Positions 7,670 through 36,940 of a stretch of 64,000 nucleotides of DNA are shown in pieces. The notes below the pieces were generated by a model, which saw only the letters and a program-made list of their open reading frames with translations, did not search any database and was not told where the DNA came from. The position numbers and the translations under genes were made by a program. The DNA lies in contig OZ296653.1 of assembly GCA_965655095.1 (NCBI GenBank), positions 52,948,001 through 53,012,000 of the forward strand. The letters run 5' to 3'. This DNA is from Haplodiscus bocki. Its lineage: Eukaryota. Each line of letters starts with the position of its first letter. Position 1 is the stretch's first letter.

Positions 7670-10505
7670 TTGGAACTCGATTGAACCGTAGTACCGCTGT
7701 TCACGAGACGGGGAACGGGCCGAGATCCACAAAAAATTATAACTCCCAAGTTAATCAAAGGGAGATTGTATTTCGGAGGCAGGCGATGGGGTTCTTCTGC
7801 AAAATATATGCACTGTATTTTTCTTCGATCAACTGAGAGGGGTATCTCGTAACTGTTGACTCTTATTTAAATAAACTGAAGAAAATGGTCGTTGGGCAGA
7901 CTTTGATTTAACTTGTTTCAGAACTTTGTGCTAAACATTTTTCTATCGTGAGTAAATACAATATTAGGAAGATAATAACAATTAACGGAATAATAATGAG
8001 TGACAAAATTATATATTTGTCTTCACGCATCAAAAAAATACTGAATAGAGACTTCAATAAGTACTTTAATACAGGTTCGAATGATAGCAACGAATCACTT
8101 TGAAGAAATTATTACAGCAACTTTACGTTGATAGTCAGAAAAAAGTCTAGTCACTGATAGAATTGGATCGCACACCAATACCACAACTCAATTCGTAAGT
8201 GAATGGGAAACTTTTGTCCCACTAGACTCTCAAACGAGTAACTTAAAAAAATCAAAAGTCCTGGACTGTTCAACAATAGCTTTTCAATACCGATTCTCAA
8301 AATTCATTTTCCCAACTTCAGTCCTGGACTCAGTTGAGGAAAAACGGCTTTAACCAAAATAGCAAATGCCCGGTGAGTCAACTCACTTTTTAGCAGCGTT
8401 TACCAACGCTTCTTTCACTTAGTTTCGTACTTTTACCGCTAGGGTTTTTTTGGCCTTACTTTTATTCGTCCGGTGAATCGTATCCAATATTTTCTGAAGA
8501 GGCTCATCAACTTTCGCTGGTTAATTCTTTGATTTCATTTCGGTACATCAATCATCAGTTTGGCAACTACTTGATTCTCACTTTCTTGACTTACATCAGA
8601 TATGATTATTCAACGTTGGTCGTATCAACTGGCTAAACGGGTGTCTTAAATGTGACTAAGAAAATTCTTCTTCGTTTCCGTTCGTATATGTCACTATTCT
8701 GATTGACAATTGACTATTCCTTCGGGTGATGTGTCAGCTCTTTCATTTGTCACGCTTCGTCAAGTACTTCCGAAACAGGCGATTGAATTGTCATTCTTAA
8801 GCATTACCAACAAATTATTCATGCAAAAACAAATGTCCCCAAAACGGTGTAATTTCTGTGTAAACTTCGTAATAAATTGTGTCAACCATAAACGCTGGGG
8901 AAACAAAATGAGCACACCCTCACGCGCGGTTCTTAACGTATTTTTAGCAAGATATATTTTTTTATTTTTATTTTCGATATTCACAATCCAAAAAAGCGAT
9001 TTTCTTTAAGTAATCAAACTTCCGTTCCCAAAAAGTCATTTTCTGAGCCATTTGAGGTCCTTTTTCTTAACGTATAAATTGTTTTCTAGAGCGGGGTGGT
9101 TATTTGCTCTTAACAGAATCAAACAGCAGTATTTTAACGAATTGTTGATTTCTCTGATTTGTCTCAACAGAAATTCATTCAGTTTCTCGCAAAGTCTCAT
9201 TTTTGGCCGCTTTCGACTATTGAGGGGCAGCTTTAATGACGATTTTCTTAACATACTGGCAAATTTTCAAAAACTCTCTGGTCAGTTTCCTAGAAGACGT
9301 TGTTAGGAACCTTTTGTCAAAATAAGAGTTTTCTATTTTCGGAAAAGTGATGGGGGGTAGCCATTCTAAAATCCACCTTTTTCAAAGTCAGCGATTTTTG
9401 CTAGTTGTAAATTAGCGGGTCGGCCATTTGTACTTTGTTACGTTTTTTATTATTATTTTCATTTTAATGAGTTTTAGACTTTCATTTGATATTTTTTCGG
9501 TTGAATTCTGTTGGCTAGTCGTTGACAATTAGGCAAAAGAAACACAATTTTTGGCGATTGTAGACTGATTGGGGCGTTTTTTGGCGACTTCTTCCCTAGT
9601 TCTCTATAAGGAGTTAATTTATTCAATTCATCTTTTCAGCCACAACAGTTCATCTACATATATTCCGTCTAACTATTTCGAGCTTTTTTGTTGCGTGATT
9701 TGCTCGGAAAAAACTTTTAATTGAACTCAATTCACCAGTTTCTGCACTGTTTATTTCATTTTCGACAAATTTTCACTATCTCAATTTCGTGCGATTTTGC
9801 TCATATTCCAAATATAAGCTTTCCTGCAGATGTAGTTTACAATGGTGAATTTTATTTGTCGCCATCTTTGCAATCTTAGGGAATTTTTGATAAAAACGTT
9901 GAGATCTATTTAAAAAAGGTTTGATTTTTGGGAGCGGCAATGTAAATTTGCTAATACGTGGGGTGGCGGCCGTGGGCGTGGTCAGAACTTTTTCAAATTT
10001 CATTTAATTTGTAATTTTTTTACTTGCAACAAATTGTTTCTCTCCGCTTTCACTTTTATGAACTTCTGAACTTGCAATTGAACTGAGACCTCACCATTTT
10101 ACTTTTTCCACTGACCGTAAGGCTTTACGTTTTTATTTTTCGACTACCCATAACCTTTCACTCGCAACGAAAGTCACCCAACATGTTTTTAATGGAATGT
10201 TGTTGTCAATGGTGAAAACCGTTTTGCTGTATACATCACAGTCTTTGAGTAAAATGACGTTAAAGTTCGGGCTCGAATTGGGGCTAATTTAGTTTTTTTT
10301 TGCTGCGATTACTATGCTATGTTAATACGCGTGCCAGGGTTGCTCCAAAAAAAATAAAACTTGCAGCACGGATTGTTTTCATTGCAACGTAAAGTTTATT
10401 GAGTTCGATATTTGTTTTTCACCTGTCTTCCTTTCTGCTAAATTTTACACAATTCACGTGCACTAACGTAACAAATACAGTATTGAAAAAATGGCAAAAA
10501 TCATG
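7670..10505 (+). repeat. ~2.9 kb dispersed repeat, copy A
   Basis: Colinear with 30132-33150 throughout. Shared blocks include gccgagatccacaaaaaa, gttcttctgcaaa, gtcactattctgattgacaa, ggcggccgtg.gcgtggtc and ttcacgtgcact...aaaatggcaaa. Confidence 0.9.
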
Positions 10506-12827: not shown

Positions 12828-13872
12828 CGAGAAAAAAATGCGTTTTTTGCAAGGCATCTTGAAAAACCTTGTAAGATAATGCATTAGCCTTGCAAGGCTC
12901 TTGAAAGAGACTTATTAGTTTTGCAAGATTAACAAGTGCAAGACTTATTAATCTTTCCAGATTCTTGGAAGAAACTTATTAGTCTAGCCAGATTCTTGGA
13001 ATGAACTTATTAATCTTTCCAGATTCTTGAAACAGACTTATTAGTCTGGCCAGATTCTTGGAATGAACTTATTAATCTTGCCAGATTCTTGAAACAGACT
13101 TATTAGTCTGGAGAGATTGTTGAAAGGGACTTATTGGTCTTGCGAGGTTGTTGAAAGAGATTTATTAATCTTGCAAGATTCTTGAAAGGGACTCATTAAT
13201 CTTGAAAGTTTCTTGCACTTAAATTCATTGGTCTCACACAATCTTCAACAGTAATTTCAGGCTCTTCCAAGTGAAAAACACTCCTTCATACCCAAAAATG
13301 CACATTTTTCTGTAGAATTCCTGTTTGCCATCTTTTTTCTTTAACTCAGTATTTTTGGAAGAGATAGTTCATCAAGTTTTTGTCATTTTTTCCAGCTTCC
13401 AAAGATAATTTTAGTTACAAAAAAAAGAATAATATAGAGAACAACACTTCATCTGATGATATCTTCAAAGTTGTGCTGTGTGGTGATCATCATTGTCATC
13501 AGTCTGATTTCAGAAAGTGATCAAGTTTTTCCAGTTGAAACAAACATTTAAAATTTAATTTCTTGTGTTTTTGAATTTTTTGACAAGTGCAAGAAAACTA
13601 TCGATTACTCCGACCAGAACACTTTTTTGAAACATTTTACTAACTTCTAAACTAAATAAATTATGAATAATTTATCTTCAAACTAAAACCGATTTGCGTT
13701 ACAACCGTTACTTGTTTTTCTTTCTCTCCAGAGCTGAATCGAATATTATAAATGAGTTTCTTGCAAGATTTTTGAAAGAGCAATGCATCACTTGCAAGAT
13801 TCCCGCAAGAGACGCCTTTGCTGCAGGATTCTTGTAAAATCCTTGCAAATAATGTTTTTTTTTCATCTGAGA
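12828..13872. mobile_element. MITE/foldback-like non-autonomous DNA element with imperfect terminal inverted repeats
   Basis: Left end gaaaaaaatgcgttttttgcaagg...aatgcatt resembles the reverse complement of the right end aatgcatc...ccttgcaaataatgtttttttttc. Contains a subterminal tandem array. Confidence 0.55.
12910..13215. repeat. 31-bp tandem repeat (~9-10 units) with 62-bp alternating dimer
   Basis: Unit acttatta(a/g)tct.(t/g)ccagattcttg(g/a)aa.... Central units alternate ...gaaacag / ...ggaatga. Confidence 0.85.
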
Positions 13873-15700: not shown

Positions 15701-17120
15701 TAAAATCAAACAAAGTGATAGAATAATAAAATAAATACATGTATAGCGATCCTTGTACAACAGTGATTTTAATTAATGCGACAACTTTAATGCATAAGTC
15801 AAATTTAAGCACGAATAACTTCGGGAATAATCATTTTGGACAAAAGTACCAGAAACAAAAATATTCTTAGAATTTTTAGGAGATTATAATGGTGTTAGTT
15901 TGAAAAATTTCCAATGAATCTAGCAAAAACTAGAAATGCGTTTTTGGCCAAATTTTCTATTCTTTTCAGGATTTCGTATCATTAAAAAAATAATGGAATT
16001 CTACTTCATCAATAGATGCCCCTGATGTTTCTACGACAGCTGATATCATCTGTAGGCGGAAAAGTTTTCAAAAACTATTCCAAAATTCATCTTGAATCTA
16101 CTAAATTTGAAAATCAATGTATTAAAATAGGATGGTAAGATAATACTTTTACTTTATGCAATTTCTTCTGAAAATTCAAAGTTGTGAAAAAAGTGTTATA
16201 GATAAAAGTTCTGGGAAATAACCAAAATTAACAAACTATGTAATTTGTTTGTCGCTATTTTGCGTCATTGTCAAGATTTTTTAAAGAAAACTGCCAAAAT
16301 TAGTCATTTTTCGCCATGCTTGCATAGTTTATTTAGTCAACTTTGGGACGCGAGTTTCTACCCTTTTGAAGTACTTCTTTTGGCAAATAAAAAAACCATG
16401 TCGTAGCCGTCTTAATGAGCTTTCTCAGAGGACCTTTGTTTACTCTGATCTCCAATTTTTTACTTCTCCACTTAGGATTTTGTAAAGCTTATATGATCAC
16501 AAAGGTGGTCTATCGACTTGATTATTGTCTCAAATATTAACAAAATAGTAATAATCTAAAATAGCATTCTGTGGAACCGATAACACGTACAATTGTGAGT
16601 GAAAATTTTAAACTCTGAAGTACGTCGTGTATTAATTTTTGACTCAGCGCACCTTAGAGATTACAACTAACGTGGGTAGTTAAAAAATTTTGAGACGAAC
16701 TAAATTTGACGTGTAGTCAGTTATATACAGAACAGAACTGCTACTTTTCTAATTTTCAGAAAAATATATGAATTCCTTTTCAAACTATAAACAGAGACGC
16801 AGTTGCTGCTCAATATTTTGCGGAAGCGTTTTTCAGTGAATTGAACTAACCAGAATGTCTGAATAAAATTGGGAAAAAATATTTGCTTGAATCGAATACA
16901 ACCTCCGTCTAGGGGGATTCTGTCAACTTCCAATAAAACCGTCTAAGCGAATTCTGTCAACTTCAGCCAAGAAAACTCTGCAAAATAAGTAAATCGTACT
17001 TACTCTAATGTCCATGCATAGTTACGTCCATGCATAAAACGAACGCTCAAGTGTCAAAGTATGCCGTTTTGGTTTTGAAAAAATCTTGGCAAAACTACCA
17101 TTTTTATTTACGAATTATTT

Positions 17121-17270
17121 ACGAATTACTCTGACTATGATAAGGTGAGGTTGTCTAAAACTGGCCTAGAGAGCCTGGAGAAAGTGAAGTAAAATTTCTG
17201 TACAAATTTTATAAAGGTCACGTATTAAAAAAAAAACATAAATAAGTTATAGTTTTGTGGGTCCTTTACA
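17121..17270 (-). repeat. 3' LTR (recognisable part)
   Basis: Starts TGTAAAG on the - strand right after a purine-rich tract. About 10 mismatches in the first 110 bp versus 29282-29433. Confidence 0.75.
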
Positions 17271-17285
17271 TCAGTTCCTCCATTC
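17271..17285 (-). other. Polypurine tract (PPT)
   Basis: GAATGGAGGAACTGA immediately precedes the TG of the 3' LTR. Confidence 0.55.
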
Positions 17286-17289
17286 AAGA

Positions 17290-18230
17290 ACTGCGTCCCG
17301 CATTTCCATTTATGGTAAAAAAACTTCCAGTATGTGGAAGTGTCAAGATCGTTAAAAGGGCAGCAGAAACTACACAGCTGAGATTTCTGATTTCGGACTG
17401 CTCTAAGACCACAACAGTCCAAAATTCTTCTGTTCTTCGATGTGAACAAAATGTCATAGATACCAGTTACCATTGTTGCTATATTGTTCGCGTTGGAGTC
17501 GTAAACATTTTTTTACAATTTTCCTGCTGCGTGGCAGTTTCGGGAACCCCAAGAAACCTGTAGCAGTCAGCAGCAGTGAGGCGGTCGAAATTTGTTTCAG
17601 CAAAAGATTGAAGTATTTCATAGAGACAATCACGGGCTCCTTCATTTGCTTGGGTCACTTGTTTCTTCTTTCAATTCTTTAAGGTGAGTTGTACTTTGTC
17701 GGAAGTCGCGAGCCAAGACATCATTATCCTTTAACAACTTCTCATAACGGTTTCAAAAGAGGTTAAAAGACTTTCGGAGGCCGGAGAGTTCATCTTCCTT
17801 CTCTTTGACTTGTGCTTCTGACTTTTCAATTTCATTAGCCTCACGAAGTAGAGCAGCAAATTCTTTCATCTCCATAGAAGGTGTATTGCAGCCGATGGTG
17901 TGATTATTGGGAGGCGACGTAGAATTTGAAATGTGCATGGCGTCCGGAAGGACAGGAGGAGCAACAAGAGAGCAAAAGTTTTATTCTACGATGGGGTCTG
18001 TCTTGACAGCGAGGGTGGTCATTGGTTTCGGAGGAGCCCAAAGCGCTGAGAAACCAACAAAGAAAGAGCGGCGGCGGCTGTCGAAAACAGGGTGAATCAT
18101 AACGCTATTTGTTGAAGGTACGACGCAAACCGCGTGGTGTGGAAATGGGTCCACGATATACACGGTGTCACGACAAGCTACATCCTTAAACTGAACATCG
18201 ACTGTGAGAACTCGGGACCGGGAGTGAGAC
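17290..18230 (-). pseudogene. Accessory ORF downstream of env: coiled coil, DnaJ-like J-domain and Cys-rich tail
   Basis: One frame across two stops gives ...MEMKEFAALLREANEIEKSEAQVKEKEDELSGLRKSFNLF*NRYEKLLKDNDVLARDF.... After frameshifts: DCYRFLGVPETATQQE/IVKKCLRL/ANNIATMVTGIYDILFTSKNRRILDCCGL...CSFC. Confidence 0.7.
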
Positions 18231-18671
18231 CTGAAATGAAAAAGCGCTTGAAAAAGTTTACTATAAAACCCAAAAAAGAAAAGCGGTAAGTTTCTTATGC
18301 ATGGGCGTGGGCGAAAAGGTTCTTGAGTTAACTCAAGCACACGGCGAAAACGTTCTGCCTTAGAGCCGGAATCTGCAACTAAGCGTCGAGAAAAAAACCT
18401 CATTCAAGCGTCCAGAAAAAAAGTGTCAAGCAATGGTCAGCAAAAAAAATTTCACAACGTGTGAGTTAGATACGACATAAGAAGGGGTGTGAAAAAGAAA
18501 AACTCGCGGTACAAACAGGAACAAGAATGAGTTCTCGCTGTAAAACTGAAGATAGAATCAGTATTTGACCTCAGTGAACTGACACTGGACGCAAGTAGAT
18601 TGTGATACATAATATATAATAAACAGGACATAAAATTGGAAGGGGAATAGGAGGTTTGCGGTGGTCAAGCA

Positions 18672-20990
18672 TTAGGTGTGAAGTACGTGTGCGACAACGG
18701 AGTAGAGGAGGGGTTGTTCTATGGATGCGTTGCTTTTGGGACAAGTGGCATCTTTGCGACGTGTGAGAACTTCTTTGGCAACTTGGGATGACACTGAAAA
18801 TTCGTCTACGGTTAAATAAAGAAACGCAGTTGATGCTTGCGTATCATCTGCGGCAAGCTCGTTAATAACGTGTAAAAATCGTCCTTGTGTACCGCGGAAG
18901 AACCGTTGCGGATGAGTGATCAACTGCTTCTACTGACGTCAGAACAAAATGAAACGTAGTAGTGAGAGATGGGCTCAGCGACTTCTTTAAGTTTATCAAA
19001 ATCCATAGTGTGAACTTCCTGTAACTCTGCTAGTTCCATGCGGACACTAGTCAGGACAGACTTGTGTGCCTCGCTGTGAGAATACATGTTAAACTCGGAA
19101 CTAGGTGGTGGTAAAGACTCAATGAATCTTTGCAACGATGGGGTTAGTTGCACTCTGGCGACAAATGTCTCCGGACGAGTTTCATAGTATTCCATGTCGG
19201 CGTTCAAAACAAGATCTCCATGGTTGACCGTCAGTATCGACCAGCAACATGGGCGAATGACACATGCTTGACAGTCAATAGTGGACATTCTAGTGACATG
19301 AGAATCGGTATCGTTCATCGTCGGAAGGTGGCGTCTTCGTGAGATGACGTGATAAAGACCATCTGCGAGGTAAAAAGCTTGCGGGACATTAGGTAACGGA
19401 ACTGATACAAGATGACATTTTCGAGGAACCGGAACAGTAAAAATGTAGAACAGGAACGTGAGACACAAAGAGGTTACATCTGTGGTATTAGAAAATCCTT
19501 TACGATAGAGCTTGATTCTATTCGTGTCTGAGCACTGTTGTAACATGGCAACACCTAGTTTGGCATACGGGGACTTGTCGATCGCGATTGTTAAATAGTC
19601 ATGACGGAACTGATACAAAGAAGCAATCGAGCCATCCTCACTGGGCTGATACAATGGAAGTTCACGAAGAAGATTGAATGTGGCAGACTTAGAAGTCATC
19701 GGTATCCCAAGTACAGCACAGATACCAAAAACTAGGATGGAAACTACTTCAAATACAAATTGAACTTCGTAATACGTGTCTTTGTAACCAACTTACATGG
19801 CTGGTGTTGTATTAGTTCCACGATGAACTTCTTCTATTGTGATCCCTTAAACAATCTCGGCTAGACGAATGGGTGTTAGGAAAATAGGAAAGACAGAGCC
19901 GGACGATAATGAAGATACTGCTGAATAAAGATTAGTTTTGTAAGAAATGAAGGCTGATCGGTAGGCTTTATGACGAGTGTAGACAAGATCCAAATACGAA
20001 GTGCATTTTGCAACTTTAAAAACAAGATTGCTAAAGTGTTTAGTATGGACCATACAATGGGGAAAATAGATCAAGGAATGAGTGAGTTGATCTATAGCTC
20101 TGGACGTGGTGGTGAAACAGTTTTCGACTACATCTCTAATTGCCTTGACATTTTCCAGTGTCTTTGATATCTCCGAACGGAAGAGAACAAATTTTCTGCC
20201 GTTGGTGGTTTGAACCGTTTTCATTGCTTCAACAAATGAATTCTGTTTGGCCATGAGGGTTGCTATGCCCTTCTTCAAATCTTTAATATCGCTGCACAGT
20301 ATGATAATAGAGAGAGCACTGAACACTGAATACTGCATCTTTTATTGGGTTGCCAAAAAAGCTAGTTCCTCCAGATGCGGCCATGAATACAGGAAAAAGG
20401 CAACGTTGCAGAGAATGTCCCGTTTGTCCTTTGTCTTCGTTCGGTTTCGTGGGCGACGGTGCGAAAGAATTGGCAGCTCGATGGCGTTCAAGGTCATTGT
20501 TTGCAATGGCTTTTTGTTCATTCAAGACAAGATTCAGGCGATCTTCGATTCACTCAGCTAAAACTGCCAACTTTGCTAACATATCATTGCTTTTGACCAC
20601 CCAAAACATGGGTGTAGGAAAATATTGGCCTGTGGTGGAATCGATTTTATCTAGTATTGGAAAGATTTTGATGCGCCTCTAAGACAATCTGCCTTAGACG
20701 GAGGGCTCCAGCGGGGTCGAATGCTGGTGGTTAATGAATTTGTGAAGGAAGTCTAAGCTTACTCTCACGATCGGATGTGACGGCTTGATAAGCGTAGATA
20801 TACACTGCGCCTCGCTGGAAAACCGGGTCTTTTTTCTCGGAGCTGCGCTTGTTTGGAAAGTAATTTCAGAACTGATCATAAGGAACCAGGATTTCAAGAA
20901 GATAATGGCATTTAGCCAAGGACATGTTTCACGGCGTTGGTACTAAACAAAAGTAGAAAAAATTAGAAAGACACGAAGGGTACACAATGG
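18672..20990 (-). pseudogene. env: env-like (class I fusion glycoprotein-like) gene
   Basis: Downstream of IN. Hydrophobic signal-like start (~20990-20930); fusion-peptide-like LFPVFMAASGGTSFFGNPIKDAV; heptad region (ORF 19847-20338) ending SSLSSGSVFPIFLTPIRLAEIV; Cys-containing ectodomain (18920-19699); tail ITHPQRFFRG. Confidence 0.75.
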
Positions 20991-21701
20991 AAACAAGTGA
21001 GATAAATGACTGATGAGAACAAAAAGGAAGACTACTTTTTCTTATCATGCTTTGATTTATGGGAGCTATGTTTCTCTTTACTTTGACTTGTGTTCTCTGA
21101 CTTCCAATGGCTGGGAAAGTGTTTCTCTAATTGGTGAAGCGGTTGTGCATGACGTTGAAGCAATGTTGACGAACGTAATTGACCCGGACATACGGCTTGA
21201 CTATCAAGCTTGGCAGACTCTTCAGGAGTAGCTGAACAGTCCAAGCTTTCTGCGGCGTTAGACATGGGACTCTCAACTGAAGGAGAGGAGAAAGTTGAGT
21301 CTAGTTGTACGGAAATTTTCATGGAGAAACTTGAAAGACCAAAAAGTGTCATTAATTACAAATTGGGCTTACGATGGAACTTGAAACAAATCCAGAGGTG
21401 GACTAAAAGGAGTGGTTCTGCTAGGAACCAAGGATGCTCGTTCTGGTCTTGCAGCAGTTGAAGAGCCTTGGATTGGAGTTTCCAAGATAAAAAGTGCAGA
21501 AAATGGGGCTGGACAGGCACTTCGGGGTCGAGGGCTGGGTGGAATTTGGTCAAACAAGCTTTGGGAACAGTTACAATGTTGGTGAAGAGCGGTGTGTGGT
21601 TTTTGTGCCGATTTGTTTGTCAGCTCCTTGGGGAGATTTGGTTTACGCCTTGGAAGCTGTAGTTCTTCCGGGCGTTGAATGAATGGTTTTAAAGGGTCTT
21701 A

Positions 21702-22950
21702 TTAAACGATGGTCTCCTTTTGATTCGCTGTGTTCTTGGTTTTATAGGTAACTTCATTAAGACACTGTATAATTGTGAAAAGACCTTTCCGCATGGATGA
21801 AAGTTCAGGACTCAATCCTTTGGGGGTGATGGAGCTATGTAGCCAAACACTGTCACCTGGCTGGTATCGGGGGCCATGCGTTTTAGAATCACACAAAGGG
21901 TTGCGTCGCAGTTGAGCAGCTTGAAGATGAAGGCGTGCTGCTTCGTGAGTTCTTTGCATGTCGGCACATTTTTGTTGGATAAACTGATGCACATGAATCT
22001 TGTTCCATTCTTCTGGAGAAGGGTAGTGATTATCAATGAAGAGGTTGATTTTTTCGCCAAAAACAAGAAAATGGGGTTTCTAACCTGTCGATTCATGGAC
22101 TAAGCTTCGAATTGTCATCGTCAAATTCGCACGTTGCTGAGTCCAATGGTTTTGGAGGTCAACAAAAATTTTGGACAACATATTCAGGAAAAGTTCTCTT
22201 CATTCGTTCGATCACAGCGTTCGATTAGGGATGGAAGGTTGTAGTTCGCGTTTAATCAATCTGAAGGGACTGCATGAGACTTTGGTAAAAATTAGATTCA
22301 AAGTTTCGACCTTGGTCTGTGTAAATGCTCACGGGAACGCCAAAACGAACAATCCGAAGCTCAAGTAGTGCGGTAGCAGTCATTTCAACTGTCTGATCTG
22401 TCAATGGGACTGCCTCATACCACTTTGTGAAGTGATCACCAAATAATGCAAAATATGCGTTATCATTTAAGACCGGAAGAGGTCCAAGGAAGTCAAAACC
22501 AATGTGAGCAAAAGGGAAACTAAGAAGGCCAAATGACAAGGCTGTGTCTTTGTTTTTGCTTGGGGCTGTTACAGTGTTGACAAACAAGACCACTTGAGAC
22601 AAACACACCTACATCTTTCTTACTTCCTGGCCAATAGAATCTTGGTCGAAGTTTATCTAGGGTTTTTGTAACTCCTAGATGGGCAGCTGTTGTGGAATTG
22701 TGAAATGATTCTAGGATTTTGGGTCGCAATGTTGTTGCAACGACTTGTTGTAGGTGACATCGGTCTGTGCTTGAATCCTCAAACTACGGCACAGGATATC
22801 ATTCACGACGTTGAGGAAGTCAAAATTGTTCCAAAAAAACCAAGTGTTTATTGAATGGCCTTGAAGGACTGAGCGACGGGGCTGTTTCCTGTTTTCCACC
22901 CAAGAAAGAACGGTGCTAAGAGTTTGATCGTCTTCTTGTGCATGTTGCAT
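21702..22950 (-). pseudogene. pol: pol: integrase
   Basis: Zn-binding HNSTTAAHLGVTKTLDKLRPRFYWPG...CQHC; core PFAHIGFDFLGPLP...GDHFTKWYEAVPL...FGVPVSIYTDQGRNFES; GPF-like KGLFTIIQCLNEVTY. Confidence 0.95.
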
Positions 22951-23013
22951 GTCATTCTTTGTTCCCTTTTCTTTTTGAGTCCCGCTAGAACTGGAATTCT
23001 GCTGTTACGGTTG

Positions 23014-23430
23014 CATATAAACCGTAACTTTGGCGAGCGAGTTGTGGAAGACATCCGTGATGATTCCTTTCACTTCAAACCAATTAAGCCTGTCGAGTCC
23101 TGTCGAAAGTTGTTGTTGGCTTATCTTTTCAATTTTGTGTTTCTGCGCGTGTTGCAACATGGTTTTGAATGCTGCACGTAGGGAACTATACGTCGGTTTG
23201 TTCCAAAATCTGGGCTTGATAATCAAGTGATAAATGAATGTAGTCGGAGAAATTTGTTGTGCGTAAAGGTTTCTTTTCGACGCTTTCGACCCAAACTCGA
23301 GGTATGTGGTTGGAAACTCTTCCCTAACCTGCTTGGCAATACCTCCAGCCAGCTTGAAGTCTGCTAAAATGCTATGGGTTTTTTAATCTGTGGAATCAAA
23401 TAGATATCCACTCATTTCTACTAGTTCGAA
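23014..23430 (-). pseudogene. pol-embedded macrodomain (TARG1/OARD1/Poa1p-like)
   Basis: In frame with RNase H, one stop: FELVEMSGYLFDSTD*KTHSILADFKLAGGIAKQVREEF...FIYHLIIKPRFWNKPTYSSLRAAF...STGLDRLNWFEVKGIITDVFHNSLAKVTVY. This parallels TARG1 GDLF..LAHCIS.D..MGAGIA..YLITK..KPTY..GLDRLQW..EVF..ITVY. Confidence 0.88.
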
Positions 23431-23699
23431 TTGTTTTAATTTTTCTGTTTGGCAGACAATCTGTACGAAGTCAAAACTTTGATGACTTCTCTCTTGGGCA
23501 TCATCTTTCGTATAGAGATGCTGTTGCTGCAATTTTGTCTTCGCTTGCTTCTTCTTGTAGGTGACTGGTTTTCTTCTGTTGCCCGTGCCAGGAGGTTTTG
23601 GCCATTCTGTGTCACTTGCTTCGTCGTTATTCAGCGTTGGGTGCTTTGCTTCTGCACCGCGCGTAAGTGCATACACCTGATCCGTGGTGGCATCTTGAC

Positions 23700-24070
23700 T
23701 GGGAATACTGGACATAGAGTCCGAGTGTCCAATATTTTTTCCACTGCGGTGGACAATTTCGTATTCAAAAGTTGCTAGTTTTTCTAGCCAACGTGCTGTT
23801 AAACAATCAAGGCCTTTGAAATTATGAAGCCACTGCAAAGGTCTCTGATCAGTGACAGTTTGGAATTTTCTTCCTAACAAGTAAAACTTGAAATATCTGG
23901 TGAAATTCAAAATGGCCAAAAGTTCACGCTTCCTGGCAAAAAATCGGCTCTAGGCTTTGCTGAAGGATTTGGATGCGTGTCAAATGACGCGTTCTGGACC
24001 ATTTTGAACTTGAGCGAGCACTGCACCCATTGCATGCTGGCTAGCATCAGTATACAATATGAAAAAATTT
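23700..24070 (-). pseudogene. pol: pol: RNase H
   Basis: YTDASQHAMGAVLAQ...RELLAILNFTRYFKFYLLGRKFQTVTDQRPLQWL...ARWLEKLATFEYEIVHRSGK. Confidence 0.95.
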
Positions 24071-24197
24071 TCTCGTGCTCAGGAAAGCCAAAAATAAGGC
24101 GGAGGTGAGTATCGTTTTCACAACTTCAAATGCTTCTTGGGCTTGGAAATCCAGAGGAAATGTTCTTATTTCTCGGTCAGTTGATGCAGTGGACGGG

Positions 24198-25000
24198 CTA
24201 TTTTTCAAAATCTTGCTCATATCTTCTATAGTATGAACAGTGGCCTAAAAAACGTTTGACTTCAGTAGCGTTCTTTGGTACCGGATGCTTGTTAACTGTA
24301 GAAATTTTCTCAGGAAAGGCTTGGATGCCTTCACGGCCTACATCGTGGTCCAGAAAGGGTACTGTCTCTCGGAAAAACTCACATTTAGTTGGAAGGATTT
24401 TTAGATTGGCGTCTTTGAACCTTTGAAAAACTTCACAAAGACGCTCTAGGTGTTCTTCGATTGTGCGAGAGAAAATGATGCAATCATCCAAATAAGGAAT
24501 TGTGGACTTCCTAGTTAGGCCTACGAGTACCTTTTCCATGAGACTCTGAAAGTTTTTGGGACTACCGGTGAGGCCCATTGGCATGCGTAGCCACTTAAAT
24601 GATCCAAATGGTGTCCTGAACACTATAATCCTGAATTGCCTCTTCTATGGGGAGTTCATAAAATCCCCAAAATCTGTCAATGGTAGACAAGTAACAACTG
24701 CCTTCCAAAGTTCAAAGGTTTCTTCGATGGATGCTATTGGCCAGCATGACTTGATGGTCTGCTTGTTCAACTGCCGATAGTCAATGACAAGTCTCTGTTT
24801 ACCATTTTTCTTCAGAACTAATATAGCAGGTGCACTGTGAGGCCTATGGCACGGCTCAATGAAGTCATGCTCAAGGAATTTGTCCAATTTTTTCGCGAAG
24901 GTCTGGTTTGAAATGCATTGGCATCCGGCAAGTTTGAAGTTTGACCGGAGTAGAACCTGGATACAGTTGAATTTTATGTTTCACGAGATCAAAGTTTCCC
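24198..25000 (-). pseudogene. pol: pol: reverse transcriptase
   Basis: RLVIDYRQLN, FRTPFGSFKWLRMPMGL, YLDD, KCEFF, EVKRFLG.CSYYRR; frameshifted. Confidence 0.97.
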
Positions 25001-25449
25001 ATGTCCCGTTCATCTTCAGAGATGACATTTGAAAACTTACGGAGTAACTGCGCAAATGTCGCATGGAAACTTTCGTTCAATACTGGCTTAGCTTGGTGGA
25101 TGATGCTTTTTGAGGTCATACATGGTGGTGACTGTGGTGTGCTTCTGTTTTGTTTGAATGACTACAATGTTCTGGGCGAACGTGTCGTCCTGCAGAATGT
25201 TCCTAATGTTGAACCTTTGCAGATCTTTTGATCTTCTCCGGGACTAATGATACTTGCTGGAATGGCATCCTCTTGAAATTCGGAAAGAGTGTTGAAAGCT
25301 AAGACATTTTGTTCGTCGCACAAGGATTGTGAAGTTTTGAAGATTCCTTGTTTTGTCAGTAAGGTGTGATCATCAAGGTCAGATTTACCTAGAATAATCG
25401 CTTCATATGCGGAAAGTATGAAGGATGTTTCTCTGGCAACTAATCTCAT

Positions 25450-25880
25450 GACTGGGTTGTTCTAGGTCTGTACCGTTGCTGTTCGATAAAAAAAAGTTTG
25501 CAGAGGTATCTCGGTTCAAACGTAACATCATTTCAGAAAACATAGGATCACACTTGTGTGTTTCAAAAAACTCAGGACCTAACAAACACTCAATTTTAGA
25601 AGCTTCCAGGACAAGCAAAGTGTGTCGAAAAGTCATTGATTCTATCTCTTCAAGTCAGCTTCAAGTTCACCTTTTACTTTTATCTCGCCTTGATTGGCAG
25701 CTAGGAGTCGTTTAAAACATGTTACCAGAGATGATTGTGTCTTTGGAGGAAGTCAAACAAACATTTTGCGGCTCAAACAAGGAGCAGCTGCGCCTGTGTC
25801 ACAAACGGCATCAAACCGAATTTCACAGACCGTAATTCGTACGAAAACACTTTTGTGATCCACCACTGAATTCAAACATT
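25450..25880 (-). pseudogene. pol: pol: aspartic protease
   Basis: DHKSVFVRITVCEIRFDAVCDTGAAA (DTG at ~25792-25800) and downstream ECLLGPEFF. Confidence 0.85.
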
Positions 25881-25905
25881 CCGTCTATTGGAGGTTTTTT
25901 GAGTT

Positions 25906-25950
25906 ACCTGCGCAGTTGCCTTGTTGATACGTAGGTGCTTTCCGTTTAAA
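25906..25950 (-). promoter_or_regulatory. -1 programmed ribosomal frameshift signal (gag-pol)
   Basis: Slippery heptamer T TTA AAC in the gag frame, 7-nt spacer, then hairpin ACCTACGTA...TGCGCAGGT. The -1 frame is the protease frame. Confidence 0.75.
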
Positions 25951-27031
25951 TTTTGGCGTCGGGCACGGCATTCGTGCCTGAAGTGGCCAATTTTGCCACC
26001 ATTGAAACGTGCTTTGCACACACAGCTGGAATGGTTCGTTCGGCAACAATGTTTGCATTTTCTTCATCGCAATGCTGCGAACTGGAACTTCGGTTTCGTT
26101 AGTTGTTTTTGGAGTTATCTGAGAAGCGAACTTTAGAGCTATTCCTCCGATTGTTGCTGTTTCGAATGGTATTCCGCTCGTTGGGCTGATTAGGTTTGTT
26201 AAAGTTGGAAAAGTTGTTCTTGCGTCTCGGTCCTGGTGAGGGAGACCGACATCGGTTAGTATCTTGACTGTCTGAGTGTTCTCTTTGATTGTTTTGTGAA
26301 GCATTTCTGTCGGCTTCTGCTGGCTTAGCCACAGCGTGTTGAAGTTCTGTGCGTAAACTGCGAACCAACTCAGTAAATGTATCGAGGGGGGTCTCAATGC
26401 TGATATTCTTAACACCTGAAGTTTGTAATTTTAAACCGCTGATTTCAAGAAAAGAATGAGTTTCCACTGCTGCTTGCAGTGCAGCGTCATCATCTGCGGG
26501 TTTCGCTTTGCGAAACTCCCACCGAGCTTTGGAGTTGGACAAACCGGAAAAAAAGTGGTCAGCAGGATTTCATTGCGAATAACCTCGACAGGATAAGCAT
26601 TGCGGGCTAAATCTTGCAACTCTTGAAATAGTTGGGATTTTTCGTCCATGTTGTTGACGGAGAGCTTCAACTTTAGCCTTAAGTACATTTTTATTAGGAG
26701 CATACTGAGTTTGAAAAGCGTGACGAAGGCGATGAATGTTAGTCTGCTGGGATCGAGTCAGCCAGTGATGGCAATTTGAAGCGTCGCAACTGAGGCGGGC
26801 AGAATTGAATTCAGGACACAAAGCACCTGAGGGCTGGTTTTCCCAATCAGGAAGAGAAGTAACGGTATTGAACTGAGAGACAAAGTCTTCAATGTCAGTG
26901 GTGCCATCAAACGGGGCGGGCAAAAGACAAGAGTAATTAGGCGTAACTGTGTCACCAGATGACATACTGGAAGATTGTTGAGAGGCCACGTTTGGGACTT
27001 GATCGTCAGGATCCACACGAAACAGAAACAA
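25951..27031 (-). pseudogene. gag: gag with two CCHC zinc knuckles
   Basis: PAPFDGTTDIEDFVSQF N-terminus; LQDLARNAYP; knuckles CKHCCRTNHSSCVC and degenerate RFNGGKIGHFRHEC; frameshifted. Confidence 0.88.
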
Positions 27032-27486
27032 GAAAGAAAATCAAATAGACGTTCGACACATGGACATGTAATCGAGGATTTCGTTCAAATCATGAGCCTG
27101 ATAAAAACAAGTGAAAGGAATGAAACGTTGATATTCAGTCAAAGAGGAGTAAAGGTAGTTATAGTTGGGGGTATGCGCAGGCACAGTAATCAAATCAGCG
27201 TTTAAATGGTTATATGAGGCAAGGAGAAGTTGAATATCGGAACCATTGGTACGACAGCGGATTTCAGTAACAAGGTCAGGGAATGGACAATTTGGACGGA
27301 TCCACGAAAAAAAAGTGCAACAACAGTAGTTCCAACCATGAAGTAAATAGACTAAGAATCAACGACCCAAAAATGTAGAGAAAGAAGGAACAGTTTAGAA
27401 AAGACAAACAAAGAATGCACAAACAAATGAGAAGAATCAAGAGTCGTTCGATGGATTGTAAGCGAGTCAAAGGAAGAGAAACAGTG

Positions 27487-28099
27487 TCAGGGCGCAAATG
27501 CTAAGCGCCTTTGTAGCTCGGCAGAGGAGTGGTTTGAACTTGATCCGTTGGAGTTTAAGGATCTTGATGCTGCTGAGGCATTTGAAGTGCAAGAAGTAAC
27601 TGTGGAAGAAGAAGAAATGGCAACAGCGACAGTGGTCACGGGCAATGCAGATAATCGTGGTGCTGAGGCAACTGGTTGGGCCGTTAGGAAGTCAGGGTCC
27701 TTAAGCACGTACATTTCTAAGTAAACGAGCCAAAGGTTTCCGAGGAGGTAGACAGTTAGCACGTCGTGGACAGAAGAGTTACTAGTTTCAGTTATATAGG
27801 ACGATGTCGAAGTGCGGGAAAGATGTGACTGGTACTGCTGATTTAGGAGGGCACTGTGAAGAAGTTGGAGTTCACAAGGACCGGGTGACCGTAATTAAGA
27901 ATACAAGAGCATGCAATTTTAGCGCGTGGACGTTGACAAAAATATCAAGGGAAAGCAATGACAAAGGGGCCGGAGCTAGTGTGAACAGTGTGGTAGACGG
28001 ACATACAAAATAGTTAACAAGTTTATGTGTTCTTTGGTAGCGAACTGACGAAAAAGGTTGAATATTACGGCAGCACTCGATGTGACAAACGGACGGCAA
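27487..28099 (-). pseudogene. Possible extra ORF (ORF0) upstream of gag
   Basis: About 130 open codons (LRSPGPCELQ...VLTVYLLGNLWLVYLEMYVLKDPDF, then a Ser/Thr-rich tail) preceded by frameshifted Cys/His-containing segments. Confidence 0.4.
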
Positions 28100-28244
28100 G
28101 AAAAGAACGTAGCAAAAAGGAAGGCGACAGAAAAACTTTGCGGAACGACGAGAGCGAAATCGGGGCGTCGTGCAAGGCGAAAATCTTAATGGTGGGGGTA
28201 GTATGGCCCTGCGGCTATTCCTTCACCTATCATTCTCAGTGTTC

Positions 28245-28262
28245 CACACTGGAGGGACGCCT
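28245..28262 (-). other. Candidate degenerate primer-binding site
   Basis: AGGCGTCCCT on the - strand, one mismatch from TGGCGTCCCT (complement of a vertebrate-type tRNA-Asn 3' end), at the 5' edge of the internal region. Confidence 0.3.
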
Positions 28263-28964
28263 AAATTAGTCTAGTTGGTCACCCATACGGAAGAAACTCA
28301 CTGGATTGAAGTGCTAGATCAAATAAAAGCAGGTACTTATCAAACGTGTTGATGGACAAACAATATTCTTCTCAGTGAAATTTCAGGCGATGATCAACTG
28401 ATTGAAAAAGTACTTTGTCGTGGGAACCATACTCCAAGAATAAAAATTGAAAAAAACAAACGCAAGAATTGACGCGGGTTAGCAAAAAAGGGCTGGAAGC
28501 GCAAAAAGAAAAACAAAAGGTAGTTTGATAAGCGAACTTGATATCAAAATGATATCAATTTAAACGCCAAATATCGAAAAAATGGAAGAAAAATTTGAAA
28601 TTGTCAAAAAAATTGAAAAAATGCAGCGCTGATGATGTTTAGGAAAAGAAGGCAAAAACCAAAACACAACAGGGCAGAAAAATATGCTAGAGCCGAGAGG
28701 AAAGCTTTAAAGGATGCCTGTGGGTGACATTTAAAATGCTAAAAAATGCCTGTCACCATTTGTTATAGCGACCCTGCTTTGGGTGCTATGATTGTTGTGA
28801 GCTTTTTTATCTCAGGAATGAAAATCTGTGCGCACTTTGTACTGAAAAAATTTTAAAAAATATGTTAGTTATTACGGGGTTAACACGTTTATAAGTAAGT
28901 TGAAATATTTTCAAACAAACAGTGAAAATTATAGAACTTTAACATTTTTCTTCTTTTCGTGATG

Positions 28965-29030
28965 TAGAGAAAGAGGGGAGAGAGAGATAGATAGAGGCGG
29001 AGAGAGAGAGAGAGAGAGAGGGAGAAGAGA
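28965..29030. repeat. (GA)n microsatellite
   Basis: Directly visible imperfect GA run. Confidence 0.9.
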
Positions 29031-29281
29031 AATTTCAGATTTTTTTATTTAAGATGAGAAAAGTTTAATTTTGATACACGGATGAGCTGCTGTTTACTGC
29101 AAGAAAAGATTGTTAAGATTGTTAATAGAGGCGACGGAGAATTGCGTGATGGGAAAACAAATCGCGAGATGGCGGCTGATACGAAAATGTCTACTTCACT
29201 AATCGTAGCTATAACGAGTGATGACTGATATACTTCATCACTCATTTTCTACAACGAACAGATACGAGGAACGAAATATTA

Positions 29282-29433
29282 ACGAATTACTCTGACTATG
29301 ATAACGAGAGGTTGACTAATACTGGCCTAGAGAGCCTGGAGAAAGTGAAGTAAAAGTTGAGTACAAATTTTACTAAGGTCACGTACTAAAAGCAATATTA
29401 TTTAAATCAGTTATAGTTTTGTGGGTATTTATA
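29282..29433 (-). repeat. 5' LTR (part shared with the 3' LTR)
   Basis: acgaattactctgactatgataa...ctggcctagagagcctggagaaagtgaagtaaaa...gttatagttttgtgggt matches 17121-17270. Confidence 0.75.
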
Positions 29434-30131
29434 TTTCCTTCAATTGCAATTGTGATTGAAAACTCTTGGATCGTCTGTTTTACCTCAAAAGGATAACAAT
29501 AACTCTAGGCGCGTTTGCAGGCAAGAATTAACTCCGTCAAAAGCGGATTTCAGATGTTTTATGGTTTTGACGTCAGCAAACCTGGAACAGACCCATAATA
29601 AGAGTTTTCGAGACCAATTGTTTTGACAAGTTCTTTTACAAATGAACCAAACAGATTCCATAGGAAAATCCAAATTTTCCGCTTCATTTTGTTGGAGCAA
29701 AATGGATACAATTCAAAGCCCAGGTTTCAAAACAGACAGTTTTGAAACTATCGAGTCCGTGTCAGCAGAAGACAAGTGAACAGCTTTCCAAGTGAAAAGC
29801 TTCAAGAAAACCCTCCCTATTACTCTGCATAGTTAGCTAATATATTACTTTATCCTGCTCAGACAACGACTGAATCCGTTGAAAACTGAGGCAAAAATAC
29901 GGCTGTGGAATCGCTGAAATTGAGAAAAAAAGTTTTAGAGAAAATGACTTTTTCCAGTTTATCTATCATGAAACTTCCGATCAAAAAATGGAATGCCGAT
30001 ACAAGTTCCTATCCGGTACAAGCTCCTACTTTTAATGTCAGTTTTCTCAGAGCGATCATGAAATCGGTTCAGCACTCAGGCTAAAACTATCCAATTTGAG
30101 GAAAAGTATGTAAAATTCTCAGGAATGTAAC

Positions 30132-33100
30132 TTCCAACTCGATTAAACCGTGGTACCACTGTCCACGAGACGGGGGATAGGCCGAGATCCACAAAAAAAT
30201 TTATAACTCCAAAATTAATCAAAGGGAGATTCAACTTCGCAGGCATTGGGGTTCTTCTGCAAAGTATATGCCTGACTCTGTAATTTCTACCGTTCAACTG
30301 AGAGGGGTGTCTCGTAGTTCTTGACTGTTTTAGGAAATCGAAAAAATGTTTTGTCTCCTGAAGACTTGAATTAACTTAGTCAATCCTCACAAACAAATTT
30401 TCTGAGATAATAAATACAATAATACTAGGATAAAAATTGATAATAGAATGATAACGAGAGACAATATCACTGGTTCGCTTTTGCACATCAATTTATTATC
30501 GATTACATACTTCAATAATTATGCAGATACAATAAACAAATTCTAGCATCAATTTAATTTGGAGACAATTTACTACTACAACCTTCCGTTGATAGTCATT
30601 AAACTTCTCCTGTCTACCGGAATTGGATCGAACACCAAAACCACAACTCGACAAATAATCAAACGGGTAACCTAATCTCTCTAGACTTTCGAACTAAGAA
30701 CTAATCGATTTCAACAGTCCCGGACTGTTCACAATATCTCTCAAAATAACGATTTCCCAACTTCAGTCCTCGACTAAGTTGAAGAAGACAACAAACAGCT
30801 TTAAGCAAAGTAGCAACTGCCCGGCAACTCAACTCGCTTTCTTTTGGCCCGTCAAATCGTAATCGTAACTGTTCTGATCCCAGATCAAAATAACGTTTCC
30901 GTAAAAAATCCAAGGAAATCCATAACTTCAGTCCCAGACTAAATTACGGTCGCTCGAATAAATACGACGGCTTCAAGCAAAGAAGCAACTGTCCCACAGT
31001 TCGACTTCTTTCTTTTGGCAGTGCTTAGGGACGCTCGTTTCGCTCATGGCTTTCTTGGTTTCGTATTTTTACCGCTAGGGCTATTTTCGGCTTTGTCATT
31101 ATTCATCCGGTTAATCGTGTCGAAAAATTTATAAAATGACTTATCAATTTTCGTTGGGTATTTCGTTTGTTTCACTTCGGTTCGGTAACCATCAATTTTG
31201 GTACTACTCGGTGTTCATTTTTTAGCTTACATCAGTTATGATTAATCGATTTTGGTCGTATCCACTGGCAAAACGGGGGTGTTAAAAATGATTGAGAAAA
31301 ATCCTCTTCGTTTCCATTCGTTTATGTCACTATTCTGATTGACAAGTTCTTTCGGTTGATGTGTCAGCTCTTCTATTGGTCGCGCGTGACCAATTACTTC
31401 CAAAATAGCTGGTTACATTATCTTCCCTAACCATTCCCATCATAATATCCGTGTAAAAAAAATATCCAAAAAAAGGTGTAAATTTTGTCCAAAGTTCAAT
31501 AGTTATTTGTGTCTATCATAGACGTCGTAAAAATAAAATGAGCACATCATTACACGAAATTTTCAATGTTGTTTCTGGCAGTGTATACTGTGTCATAGTT
31601 ATTTCCAATATTCATGGTCGAAAAATGCGATTTTCTGAAAGTAGTCAAAATTCCATATCCGAAAAATCAAATTTTGGTCACTTTGAGGTCATTTTTCTCA
31701 ACGTTGACGTTTTTTTCCAGTGAGGGGGTTACTTCGTGTTAGCACTTTCCCAGAAAGTGTTTTAACGAAAAGATGAGCTCTCTAGCTGGTCTCAAAAAGA
31801 AGTTTTTTACTTTTCCGCAAAAGTACCGATTTTGGCCATTTTTGACTACCTGGGTCCAGTTTCAAAGTCGATTTTCTCAACGTACAGGCAAAATTTCAAA
31901 AAATCCTTAGTCGCTTTCCTCGGTGAGGTTGTTAGGAACATTGTGTTAAATGAAACTTTCTATCTTGAAGAAGGTGCGGGGGTGGGCGCTAGCCGTTTTT
32001 GCAAGTCGACATTTTCCAAAAACCGTGATTTTGGTTAGCTGCAATTTTGTGGGGCGGCCATTTGTAGCTCGCTATGCTTGTTCTATTGTTATTTTCCTTT
32101 TTTCTCAAAAATAAGCTTTCAACCGCTAGTAAAATGATTGCTTTCTATTGGCTATTTGTTAACTAATAAGCGAAAAACTGCGATTTGTGACGTTTTTAGG
32201 CTGTTTTGGGCTTTTTTGGCAATTTCTTCCTCAGTTCTCCAAAATGACTGAATATAATATATTCACCTTTTCAGGGACCTTAGTCCATTCAATTATCTTC
32301 CGCTTAAGACTAATACAAGCCTTTTTTGATGCGTGCTTCGCTCAGAATAAATTTTTAACTGAACTCAATTTGGCAATTTCGGCAGTGCACTTTTCGTTTG
32401 CTACAATTTTTCAATATCTTAATTTCGTCCGATTCCGCTCATATCCCAAACTTAAGTTTTCCTATGGCTGTAATTTACAATGGTGAAAACCGTTTGTGGA
32501 TATCTTTTTTCATCTTCGAGAAATAAGCAAGCAAACCTTGGGGAACATTAAAAAAACAGGTCTAATTTTGAGCAGCGAGAGCGTAAATATGCTAGTACGT
32601 GGGGTGGTGGCGGCCGTGCGCGTGGTCCGAAATCACTCCAAAAGTAATCCTATTGTATTCTTTTTGTATTTATAACAATTTGATTTCACTCCGTTTTCAC
32701 TTTTTTGCGCTTCTAAAGTTGCAACTGAACTGTGAATTCACAATTGTACCATTTGCCGGACCGTAATAATTTTCGTTTTAATCTTTCGACAACTTTTAGT
32801 ATTCAAAATGCGGTGAAAATCACCCGACTTGTTTGTCTTGGAATTTAATTTTTAATGGTGAAACCCGTTTTGCTCTATCTATAATAGTCTTTGAGAAAAT
32901 GGACGTCAAAGTTAGGGTTCGAATTAGACAAAATATTAAATTTTATGCTGCTGTTGCTTTGCTATGTTAATACACGTGACAAGGTTGTTTAAAAACAACT
33001 TATACTTGTTCCGCGGCTTGTTCACATTCCAACGTAGTGCTTATTCCGTTCAATATTCACTTTTCACGTATCATTCTTACTGCTAAATTTCACTCAATTC

Positions 33101-33150
33101 ACGTGCACTGACACAGCAAATTTCAATATTGCAAAAATGGCAAATATGAT
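30132..33150 (+). repeat. ~3 kb dispersed repeat, copy B
   Basis: Diverged direct paralogue of 7670-10505, with an internal duplication of the aacttcagtcc block (~30700-30990). Confidence 0.9.
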
Positions 33151-36386: not shown

Positions 36387-36940
36387 ACTATACAGTACAC
36401 GTCTTTCGGCAAAACATTCCAGTTATCTATGAAAATATTCTGAGTTTTACAAAGACTGAGTTTCAATATTTTGTTTGTGTCAATCGATACTATTTTGTGT
36501 CTCGGCAAAAAATCCAACTTTCTATGAAAATTATGAGTTTTACAAAGGCTGAGCTCTTATACTTTGTTTGTGTTGATAATTACTATACTGTGCCGGCAAA
36601 AGATTGCAGTTATCTATAAAAAAGTATCTGAGTTTTAAAAGCACTGAGTTCTTATTATTTGTTTGTGTTTATAAATGAACACTATACTTTGTCTCTGCAA
36701 ATGATTCCAGTCTTCTGTGAAAATAATATGAATTATACAAAGACTGAGTTCTTATACTTTGTTTGTGTAAATAAGTACTATACTGTGTCTCGTCAAAAGA
36801 TTCCAGTAATCTCTGAAAATTTTCTGATTTTTACAAAAGACTGATTTCTTATAGTTTGTTTGTGTTAATAAATACAATTGTGTCTCGGCAAGAGTGCCCA
36901 GTAATCTATGAAACTAATCAGAGTTTTATAAAGACTGAGG
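36387..36940. repeat. ~95-bp tandem repeat, about 6 units
   Basis: Recurring tactat..tgtgtctcggcaaaa.attccag..atctatgaaaa...gagttttacaaagactgagttcttatactttgtttgtgt. Confidence 0.9.

Follow-up and report, generated by a model that had tools for sequence, protein, structure and literature searches.

In this analysis, we examined a window of 64,000 nucleotides from Haplodiscus bocki (GenBank assembly GCA_965655095.1, contig OZ296653.1, positions 52,948,001 to 53,012,000), whose minus strand carries a decayed Ty3/Gypsy retroelement running from 29434 down to 17110. The element is organised as a long terminal repeat (LTR), three leader open reading frames (ORFs), gag, pol, a putatively F-type-like env, a further frame (ORF4), and a truncated 3' LTR, with a macrodomain inside pol and, in young copies, a J-domain in ORF4. 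The reading that we consider probable is that an env-bearing, errantivirus-like Ty3/Gypsy clade took up cellular modules and has retained them to serve its own replication, the window holding a decayed copy. That the architecture is real we regard as close to certain; a first-pass annotation had described a single LTR-bounded Gypsy element with gag, pol and env, and all of these parts were found on the minus strand.

The pol gene (21032..25977) encodes protease (25851-25550), reverse transcriptase (RT; 24818-24339), RNase H (24153-23767), the macrodomain, and integrase (22741-21684), in the order of Ty3/Gypsy elements (Metaviridae). It is broken in the window, as is gag (25941..27016), which contains a Retrotrans_gag domain and two CCHC knuckles. 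With stops read as X, Pfam nonetheless recognises RT (7e-17), RNase H (9e-24), and integrase (2e-16 and 6e-7) in the window frames. The best PDB match of the RT-RNase H region is Ty3 RT (E 2e-80), and RT scores 274 bits against Ty3 versus 189 against the 'enzymatic polyprotein' 8r0s and at most 134 against retroviral RTs. On these comparisons, the element is a member of Ty3/Gypsy (Metaviridae), with an RT nearer to Ty3 than to those of retroviruses or caulimoviruses. One young copy of family A, which served as a ruler and nothing more, has open frames throughout (gag 367, pol 1646, env 797, and ORF4 321 codons); the window copy is 74-88% identical to a young copy in nucleotides, depending on the gene, and has frame-breaking indels in every ORF.

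The macrodomain (23011..23433, minus strand) lies in frame between RNase H and integrase. It stays below the Pfam cut-off in the window (E 0.013) and passes it in the young copy, with 26.5 bits against a cut-off of 22, and it belongs to the family, as the first-pass annotation had it. The young-copy domain matches human TARG1 (PDB 4j5q) at E 1.9e-25. Seven PDB entries match at E<=0.01, five of them TARG1 (~2e-25), followed by 5m31 (4e-5), which we take to be bacterial DarG, and 7omu (0.007); none of the seven bears a viral macrodomain label. The lysine and aspartate that align with TARG1 Lys84/Asp125 are kept in nine of nine loci spanning families A-H and are readable in the window too. The passages at hand of PMC9411070 and PMC8120803 describe these residues as the TARG1 catalytic dyad and class viral macrodomains as MacroD-like. 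The domain is, by its matches, of TARG1/OARD1 class and not of the MacroD class of coronaviruses and alphaviruses, and because of this difference the comparison with viral nsP3 is an analogy of function, not of origin. TARG1/OARD1 (4j5q) and DarG (5m31) share the class and the catalytic Lys/Asp and are stand-alone enzymes, whereas here the domain is inserted in a polyprotein. With the dyad intact, we predict with good confidence that it is enzymatically active.

Fusion of such a domain to a Gypsy pol is not unique to this element. A TARG1-type macrodomain was found in 1 of the 150 best pol-like representatives. It follows integrase in five proteins from databases, of which one is named from tiger barb, and among 43 metagenome loci there are 4, in a separate RT group, where it stands between RNase H and integrase; by this distribution, TARG1-type macrodomains recur in unrelated Gypsy pols. 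These may or may not be independent captures, the deep forks of the macrodomain tree (44 rows) being weak. We also note a JGI protein (P0311), a Gypsy-like Pol in which integrase is followed by a TARG1-type macrodomain and then by a Tpt1/KptA RNA 2'-phosphotransferase domain, and two ENA proteins (P0278 and P0280; 814-831 amino acids, 22 and 87 members) that join a protease to a macrodomain without RT and of which the macrodomain region alone matched the Haplodiscus bocki genome.

ORF4 (17321..18230, minus strand) combines a KOW/Tudor-like barrel (~18217-18025), a proline-rich linker, a coiled coil, a J-domain (~17571-17417), and a C-terminal (C/H)CG...CxxC motif. The J-domain ORF proposed after env is present in young copies, one of which scores 30.9 bits for DnaJ (cut-off 27.8), but the window copy lacks the HPD loop (ORF4 residues 245-265 are unmatched), and Pfam found no DnaJ in its six frames. 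HPD is present in all 20 top family-A loci and in eight of eight ORF4 proteins from seven families (25-36% identity), where the conserved (C/H)CG...CxxC follows it; DnaJ is above the Pfam cut-off in families A, C, D, and E. A model built from a nine-row alignment (predicted local distance difference test score, pLDDT, 70, versus a poor 53 from a single sequence) starts with a barrel of five strands at the N-terminus, which is followed by a disordered linker and a long helix and then by a J fold. The latter superposes on the J-domain of ERdj5 (Z 7.5, root-mean-square deviation 2.4, 72 residues) and the barrel on an Spt5 KOW domain (Z 6.8, deviation 1.8, 55 residues); Foldseek also lists Tudor and NusG rows for the barrel, at middling scores, and the ESM Atlas returned only sub-0.9 matches for it. 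Judged by its modelled helical J fold and its HPD motif, ORF4 of the young copies is a J-domain protein, and we predict, with somewhat less confidence than for the macrodomain, that it stimulates Hsp70.

Polyomavirus T antigens carry a viral J-domain that serves as a virus-encoded Hsp70 recruiter. The J-domain of ORF4 differs from these in its C-terminal position and in its relatives: all 23 PDB sequence matches at E<=0.1 are cellular DnaJ proteins, and no T antigen is among them. The first-pass annotation had regarded both accessory domains as modules of true viruses, a wording that the matches do not support; because the macrodomain matches are of TARG1 class and the J-domain matches are cellular DnaJ proteins, the two look like captured cellular modules and not virus-derived ones. 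A homologue search with ORF4 returned 35 proteins, all 62-99% identical and, for those with a stated source, drawn from ENA assemblies, and scans of IMG/VR with the ORF4 and env alignments found no relative.

ORF4 is likely expressed from a spliced message, since a conserved AG stands in phase before it and some frames lack a methionine. A pyrimidine tract with an AG resembling a splice acceptor (18231..18245, minus strand) marks its 5' edge; protein conservation begins there, in the same phase in nine of nine loci, and the same AG in the same phase precedes the last ORFs of family B (3/3), while some frames of families B and C have no methionine ahead of the first domain. No clear donor was seen in the leaders of A or C. 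Family B has a strong AAG/GTAAGT donor just 3' of its primer-binding site (PBS), and its small post-env ORFs start at same-phase AG sites. Reads of four runs on one young stretch gave an even, DNA-like cover that is informative neither way, with none splice-like among the 15 joints shown of 66. An extra 50 codons upstream of the acceptor in the window were rejected as coding, being out of frame in the youngest subfamily.

The lineage can be followed through the 1.5-Gb host assembly. Among 160 candidate DNA matches to the ORF4 region, 40 were scored; at the protein level, ORF4 has 128 matches, of which 16 are full-length, stop-free, and 98-100% identical. The LTR pairs of young family-A copies are 99.8% identical, versus 79-87% in six older copies, and LTR pairs reach 99.5-100% in families B, C, D, E, and F. 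The description of the element as a fossil therefore holds for the window copy but not for the lineage, which is recently active. Searches with the macrodomain, leader ORF 3, PF00226, and a related protein identified sister families B-H. RT-RNase H identity to family A is 76-85% within A-G and 32-50% for 29 other rows, in a tree of 43 rows that leaves out H, holds no named references, is read without its drawn root, and places P0311 on a long branch.

Wherever older copies extend over the accessory regions, these are collinear, and in young copies they are open, as anticipated in the first-pass annotation, which had named their absence from other copies as the sign of a secondary insertion. 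Between families A and C, identity at the codon positions falls in the order second, first, third for the three leader ORFs and ORF4, and in-frame alignments of these genes score 157-466 versus 33-68 off-frame. By these measures, the accessory parts are constitutive for the clade and under coding constraint. They diverge at different rates, amino acid identity between A and C being 62% for env, 57% for pol, and 36% for ORF4. The slot 3' of env also turns over between sister families, holding the J-protein, RING-like ORFs, or an extra ORF5. Family B retains the ORF4 barrel alone (19.2 bits; 0/1000 shuffles) and has RING-like ORFs in the slot instead (best E 7e-5, under the cut-off); it is nested among J-bearing families in the RT tree, which suggests that it lost the J-domain.

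Several structural variants accompany these families. In family B, up to four small ORFs follow env, two of them RING-like (L090:3356-5524, L086, L088, L092). In families F-H, ORF4 is followed by ORF5, of 205-247 codons, 56-59% identical and with a basic C-terminus (L176:6707-7321, L177:6377-7045, L178:6632-7315, L179, L180); it had no Pfam, PDB, or ESM Atlas match, and its assignment as an SGNH hydrolase was rejected for want of Pfam or PDB support. Four of seven fetched family-C copies (L105-L109, L113-L114) lack most of env, one of them lacking pol as well, and keep the leader ORFs and ORF4 sequence between LTR pairs 97-99.8% identical; these are non-autonomous derivatives that retain accessory genes. 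On G000 C10, at about 69.55-69.58 Mb, locus L171 is a tandem array with a 2.73-kb unit composed of the post-env region with ORF4, the LTR, and the leader start; its 11 partial ORF4 matches (residues 66-321) lie in 267-codon frames, 10 of 11 stop-free. In an older copy (L019:8333-9971), 1.66 kb of the ORF4 end and LTR is repeated at the 5' side, 87% identical.

Between the PBS and gag, where the first-pass annotation had suspected one ORF, the leader does show coding constraint but contains three, all broken in the window and on the minus strand: leader ORF 1 (27556..28004; ~149 amino acids, with a PCY.CQ motif), leader ORF 2 (27352..27581; a ~75-residue single-pass membrane protein with an (L/P)PxY motif), and leader ORF 3 (27041..27339; ~99 amino acids). 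They are 42-44% identical in amino acids between A and C, off-frame controls lying near background, and their identities at codon positions 1/2/3 are 0.48/0.63/0.37, 0.54/0.68/0.34, and 0.54/0.64/0.44, respectively. Leader ORFs 1 and 3 have no Pfam match and have homologues in F and G (0/500 shuffles reach the score); in family C, the leader ORF 3 homologues lie in open frames of 130 amino acids. Leader ORF 2 has one hydrophobic segment, and the PY motif is present in A, C, F, and G; as homologues of the A/C protein, the F/G membrane ORFs were not significant against shuffles. A tblastn search found no leader-ORF homologues in D or E, whose leaders hold frames of 88 and 113 codons. The family-B leader is short, and a 126-residue ORF of that family was rejected as a leader ORF 3 homologue, its score being reached by 193/1000 and 179/500 shuffles.

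The env gene (18665..20927, minus strand) encodes a putative F-type-like class I fusion protein. The window copy is broken, with an altered furin site and without the stretch matching residues 671-696, which holds the predicted membrane anchor, whereas the young copy has a 797-residue frame with an RQRR site and a C-terminal hydrophobic segment. As in errantiviruses, it is a third ORF with a furin site, a heptad region, a cysteine-rich ectodomain, and a membrane anchor. Six env proteins of families A, B, and C can be aligned over their full length at 45-60% identity, and they have the R-x-R-R cleavage site and the cysteine pattern in common; in families A-G, young copies have open env frames. 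No Pfam family matched the young-copy env above the cut-off. We consider an env of F type likely, and infectivity from cell to cell is, as a prediction, an even call.

The remaining parts complete a scaffold with LTRs, PBS, and polypurine tract of Ty3/Gypsy type. The 5' LTR (28761..29434) measures about 670 bp and is 84.5% identical to the young LTR; the 3' LTR (17110..17270) holds its first ~160 bp, with 139 of 160 aligned bases matching the 5' LTR. This ~160-bp repeat had been taken for the whole LTR and is merely its start: because the entire ~670-bp stretch recurs at the 3' end of all eight older copies fetched, the LTR is ~670 bp long and the 3' LTR of the window is truncated. A polypurine-tract-like stretch (17271..17285) stands directly before the 3' LTR start. 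The sequence TGGTGACA follows the LTR in the window (28749..28758) and in all seven loci displayed, and is a candidate PBS that we take, from general tRNA features, to be tRNA-Leu-like; in family B, where the PBS is longer, it pairs with a 3' end resembling that of a tRNA at L183, a site at which ARAGORN called no tRNA. All of these features are on the minus strand. Outside the element, a ~3-kb repeat flanks it on both sides (7667-10476 and 30129-33121; 71-85% identical in blocks), tandem arrays occupy 12883-13215 (31-bp unit, 10.7 copies) and 36406-36939 (95-bp unit, 5.6 copies), and a dispersed repeat beyond the truncated LTR (15756-16492) is 83-87% identical to parts of L017, L110, and L168.

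How might these parts work together? We expect that the element would replicate by the standard Gag/Pol route, and that the macrodomain, because it is made as part of Pol, would be packaged with RT and integrase, where it could remove ADP-ribose placed by host PARPs on element proteins or nucleic acid. Env and ORF4 would be translated from spliced messages. ORF4 may serve as an adaptor: its barrel would bind a client, either RNA or a protein, its coil would bring about oligomerisation, and its HPD J-domain would set host Hsp70 to work on the bound client, in capsid assembly, in uncoating, or in taking apart a silencing complex of the host. Because the catalytic and motif residues are kept in young copies, it is reasonable to propose both that ADP-ribose is removed and that Hsp70 is recruited. 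PY motifs recruit Nedd4-type ligases, so the PY-motif membrane protein may do so for budding or for removal of host membrane proteins, and together with the RING ORFs it would engage ubiquitin ligation.

Whether such a kit acts mainly in counter-defence or in support of replication is, in our estimate, evenly balanced: turnover of the 3' slot and fast divergence of ORF4 lean to host conflict, with replication support nearly as likely. It is possible, if short of probable, that the accessory proteins do replication housekeeping only, the macrodomain clearing PARP marks from intermediates of integration or repair and the J-protein folding or assembling Gag and Env. There would then be no counter-defence, and env might not act at all, or only across the short distance from soma to germline. 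The position of the macrodomain in Pol and its recurrence in Gypsy pols with no sign of the accessory set favour this explanation, as do the env-deleted family-C derivatives with their near-identical LTRs and, in the passages at hand of PMC12477816, the proposal that NADAR domains of Ectocarpus Gypsy elements process RNA intermediates. It fits poorly with a slot that exchanges J-protein, RING-like ORFs, and ORF5, with an ORF4 that diverges faster than env and pol, as conflict predicts, and with the open env frames of A-G. The strongest form of the counter-defence reading, that a complex and still-infectious Metaviridae clade converged on the kit of true viruses, swapping modules in slots, is tentative and rather doubtful; it would comprise a packaged ADP-ribose eraser against PARPs, a J-protein aimed at silencing by an RNA- or methyl-reader barrel, a PY adaptor, and RING ligases in one sister family, and it would imply that the host directs ADP-ribosylation against retroelements.

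Two further explanations bear on the modules themselves. They could be decoys or scaffolds, the J-like domain binding Hsp70 without activating it and the macrodomain binding ADP-ribose without hydrolysis, perhaps so that integrase is guided to PARylated chromatin; the divergent helix II of F, G, and H would suit this, as would a macrodomain placed immediately ahead of integrase, an arrangement reminiscent of the chromatin-reader fusions of other Gypsy elements, but neither HPD nor the Lys/Asp dyad varies even between deeply diverged copies, and we find it improbable. We give next to no credence to secondary insertion or passenger DNA at the window locus: the window copy has neither an intact accessory frame nor HPD, yet the regions are collinear in other copies, open in 16 near-identical ones, and conserved as protein across seven families. 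Several observations do weigh against the capture of modules for the element's own use, or against parts of it. With LTRs 99.8% identical, family B is young, and it is abundant despite having neither coil nor J-domain, which makes the latter dispensable for transposition; the J-domain of families F, G, and H scores under the Pfam cut-off, and its helix II has lost basic residues; and the Z-scores of the ORF4 folds stay below 8, which the tool grades as middling. Recurrence of the macrodomain in other Gypsy pols agrees with a benefit to reverse transcription in general, and also with a virus-like lifestyle. The F type of env is not settled, since its sole link to a fusion protein is a weak profile match to PDB 9w4c ('fusion protein', E 0.0016), and single-sequence searches matched no solved fusion protein.

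This organisation has partial counterparts elsewhere. Walleye dermal sarcoma virus, a complex retrovirus with a different RT family, has ORFs before gag and after env. According to the portions consulted of Chary and Hayashi (eLife 2026, PMC13524379), env-bearing Gypsy elements are widespread in animals, and in errantiviruses with F-type env the bridge that joins RNase H to integrase contains mini or pseudo-RNase H domains; the present element resembles the 'ancient' members in its Ty3/Gypsy pol, gag-pol-env order, multicopy young insertions, and extra bridge structure, and differs in that the bridge holds a macrodomain and that leader ORFs and a post-env J-protein are undescribed in these portions. 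The words 'macro' and 'DnaJ' are absent from the main text of that survey, and in the four of 14 supplement places covered, 'macro' belongs to species names. Fish epsilon-like endogenous retroviruses also combine env with a macro domain (Basta et al. 2009, as cited in the relevant part of the review PMC4977317), but these are Retroviridae with macro domains in additional ORFs, whereas here the RT is of Metaviridae type, the domain is TARG1-class and inside pol, and a J-protein is added. Drosophila MDG1/412 elements carry sORF1 and sORF2 upstream of gag, one a ~70-residue transmembrane protein (Voichek et al., PMC11952523, in excerpt), and lack env; here there are three leader ORFs plus env, and a PY motif before the C-terminal helix. 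Bdelloid rotifer LTR elements likewise have family-specific, exchangeable 3' accessory ORFs, the ORF3s typically expressed from spliced messages and one lineage having a paramyxovirus-like env; their cargo is a GDSL esterase, a DEDDy exonuclease, or env, with macro, DnaJ, and ADP unmentioned in the excerpts of Rodriguez et al. 2017 (PMC5408684). The Ectocarpus NADAR domains (PMC12477816) are also ADP-ribose-processing domains fused in Pol, of a different fold family and N-terminal, with env and J-protein not mentioned in the passages. In the parts covered of PMC6338049, PMC4695847, PMC8509805, PMC12859917, bioRxiv 2021.11.30.470311, and PMC8195603, nothing described this combination. The literature search, which covered subscription journals thinly and lay outside Repbase, Dfam, and GyDB, found no J-domain in an LTR element and no TARG1 domain in a Gypsy Pol. 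The macro part has precedent in fish retroviruses and other Gypsy pols, and that the J-protein would be the first in an LTR retroelement is a suggestion we make with considerable reserve.

The usual view of env-bearing Gypsy elements is of simple agents with gag, pol, and env; here, up to five further conserved genes are present, two of them with predictable biochemistry. The repeated fusion of TARG1-type domains to Gypsy Pol is a testable case for ADP-ribosylation acting on retroelement replication, and a retroelement J-protein would give a direct handle on the use of Hsp70 in particle assembly or silencing escape. A natural comparison is offered by several young sister families that share one genome and differ in their cassettes, and if the counter-defence reading is true, the host would use ADP-ribosylation against its retroelements.

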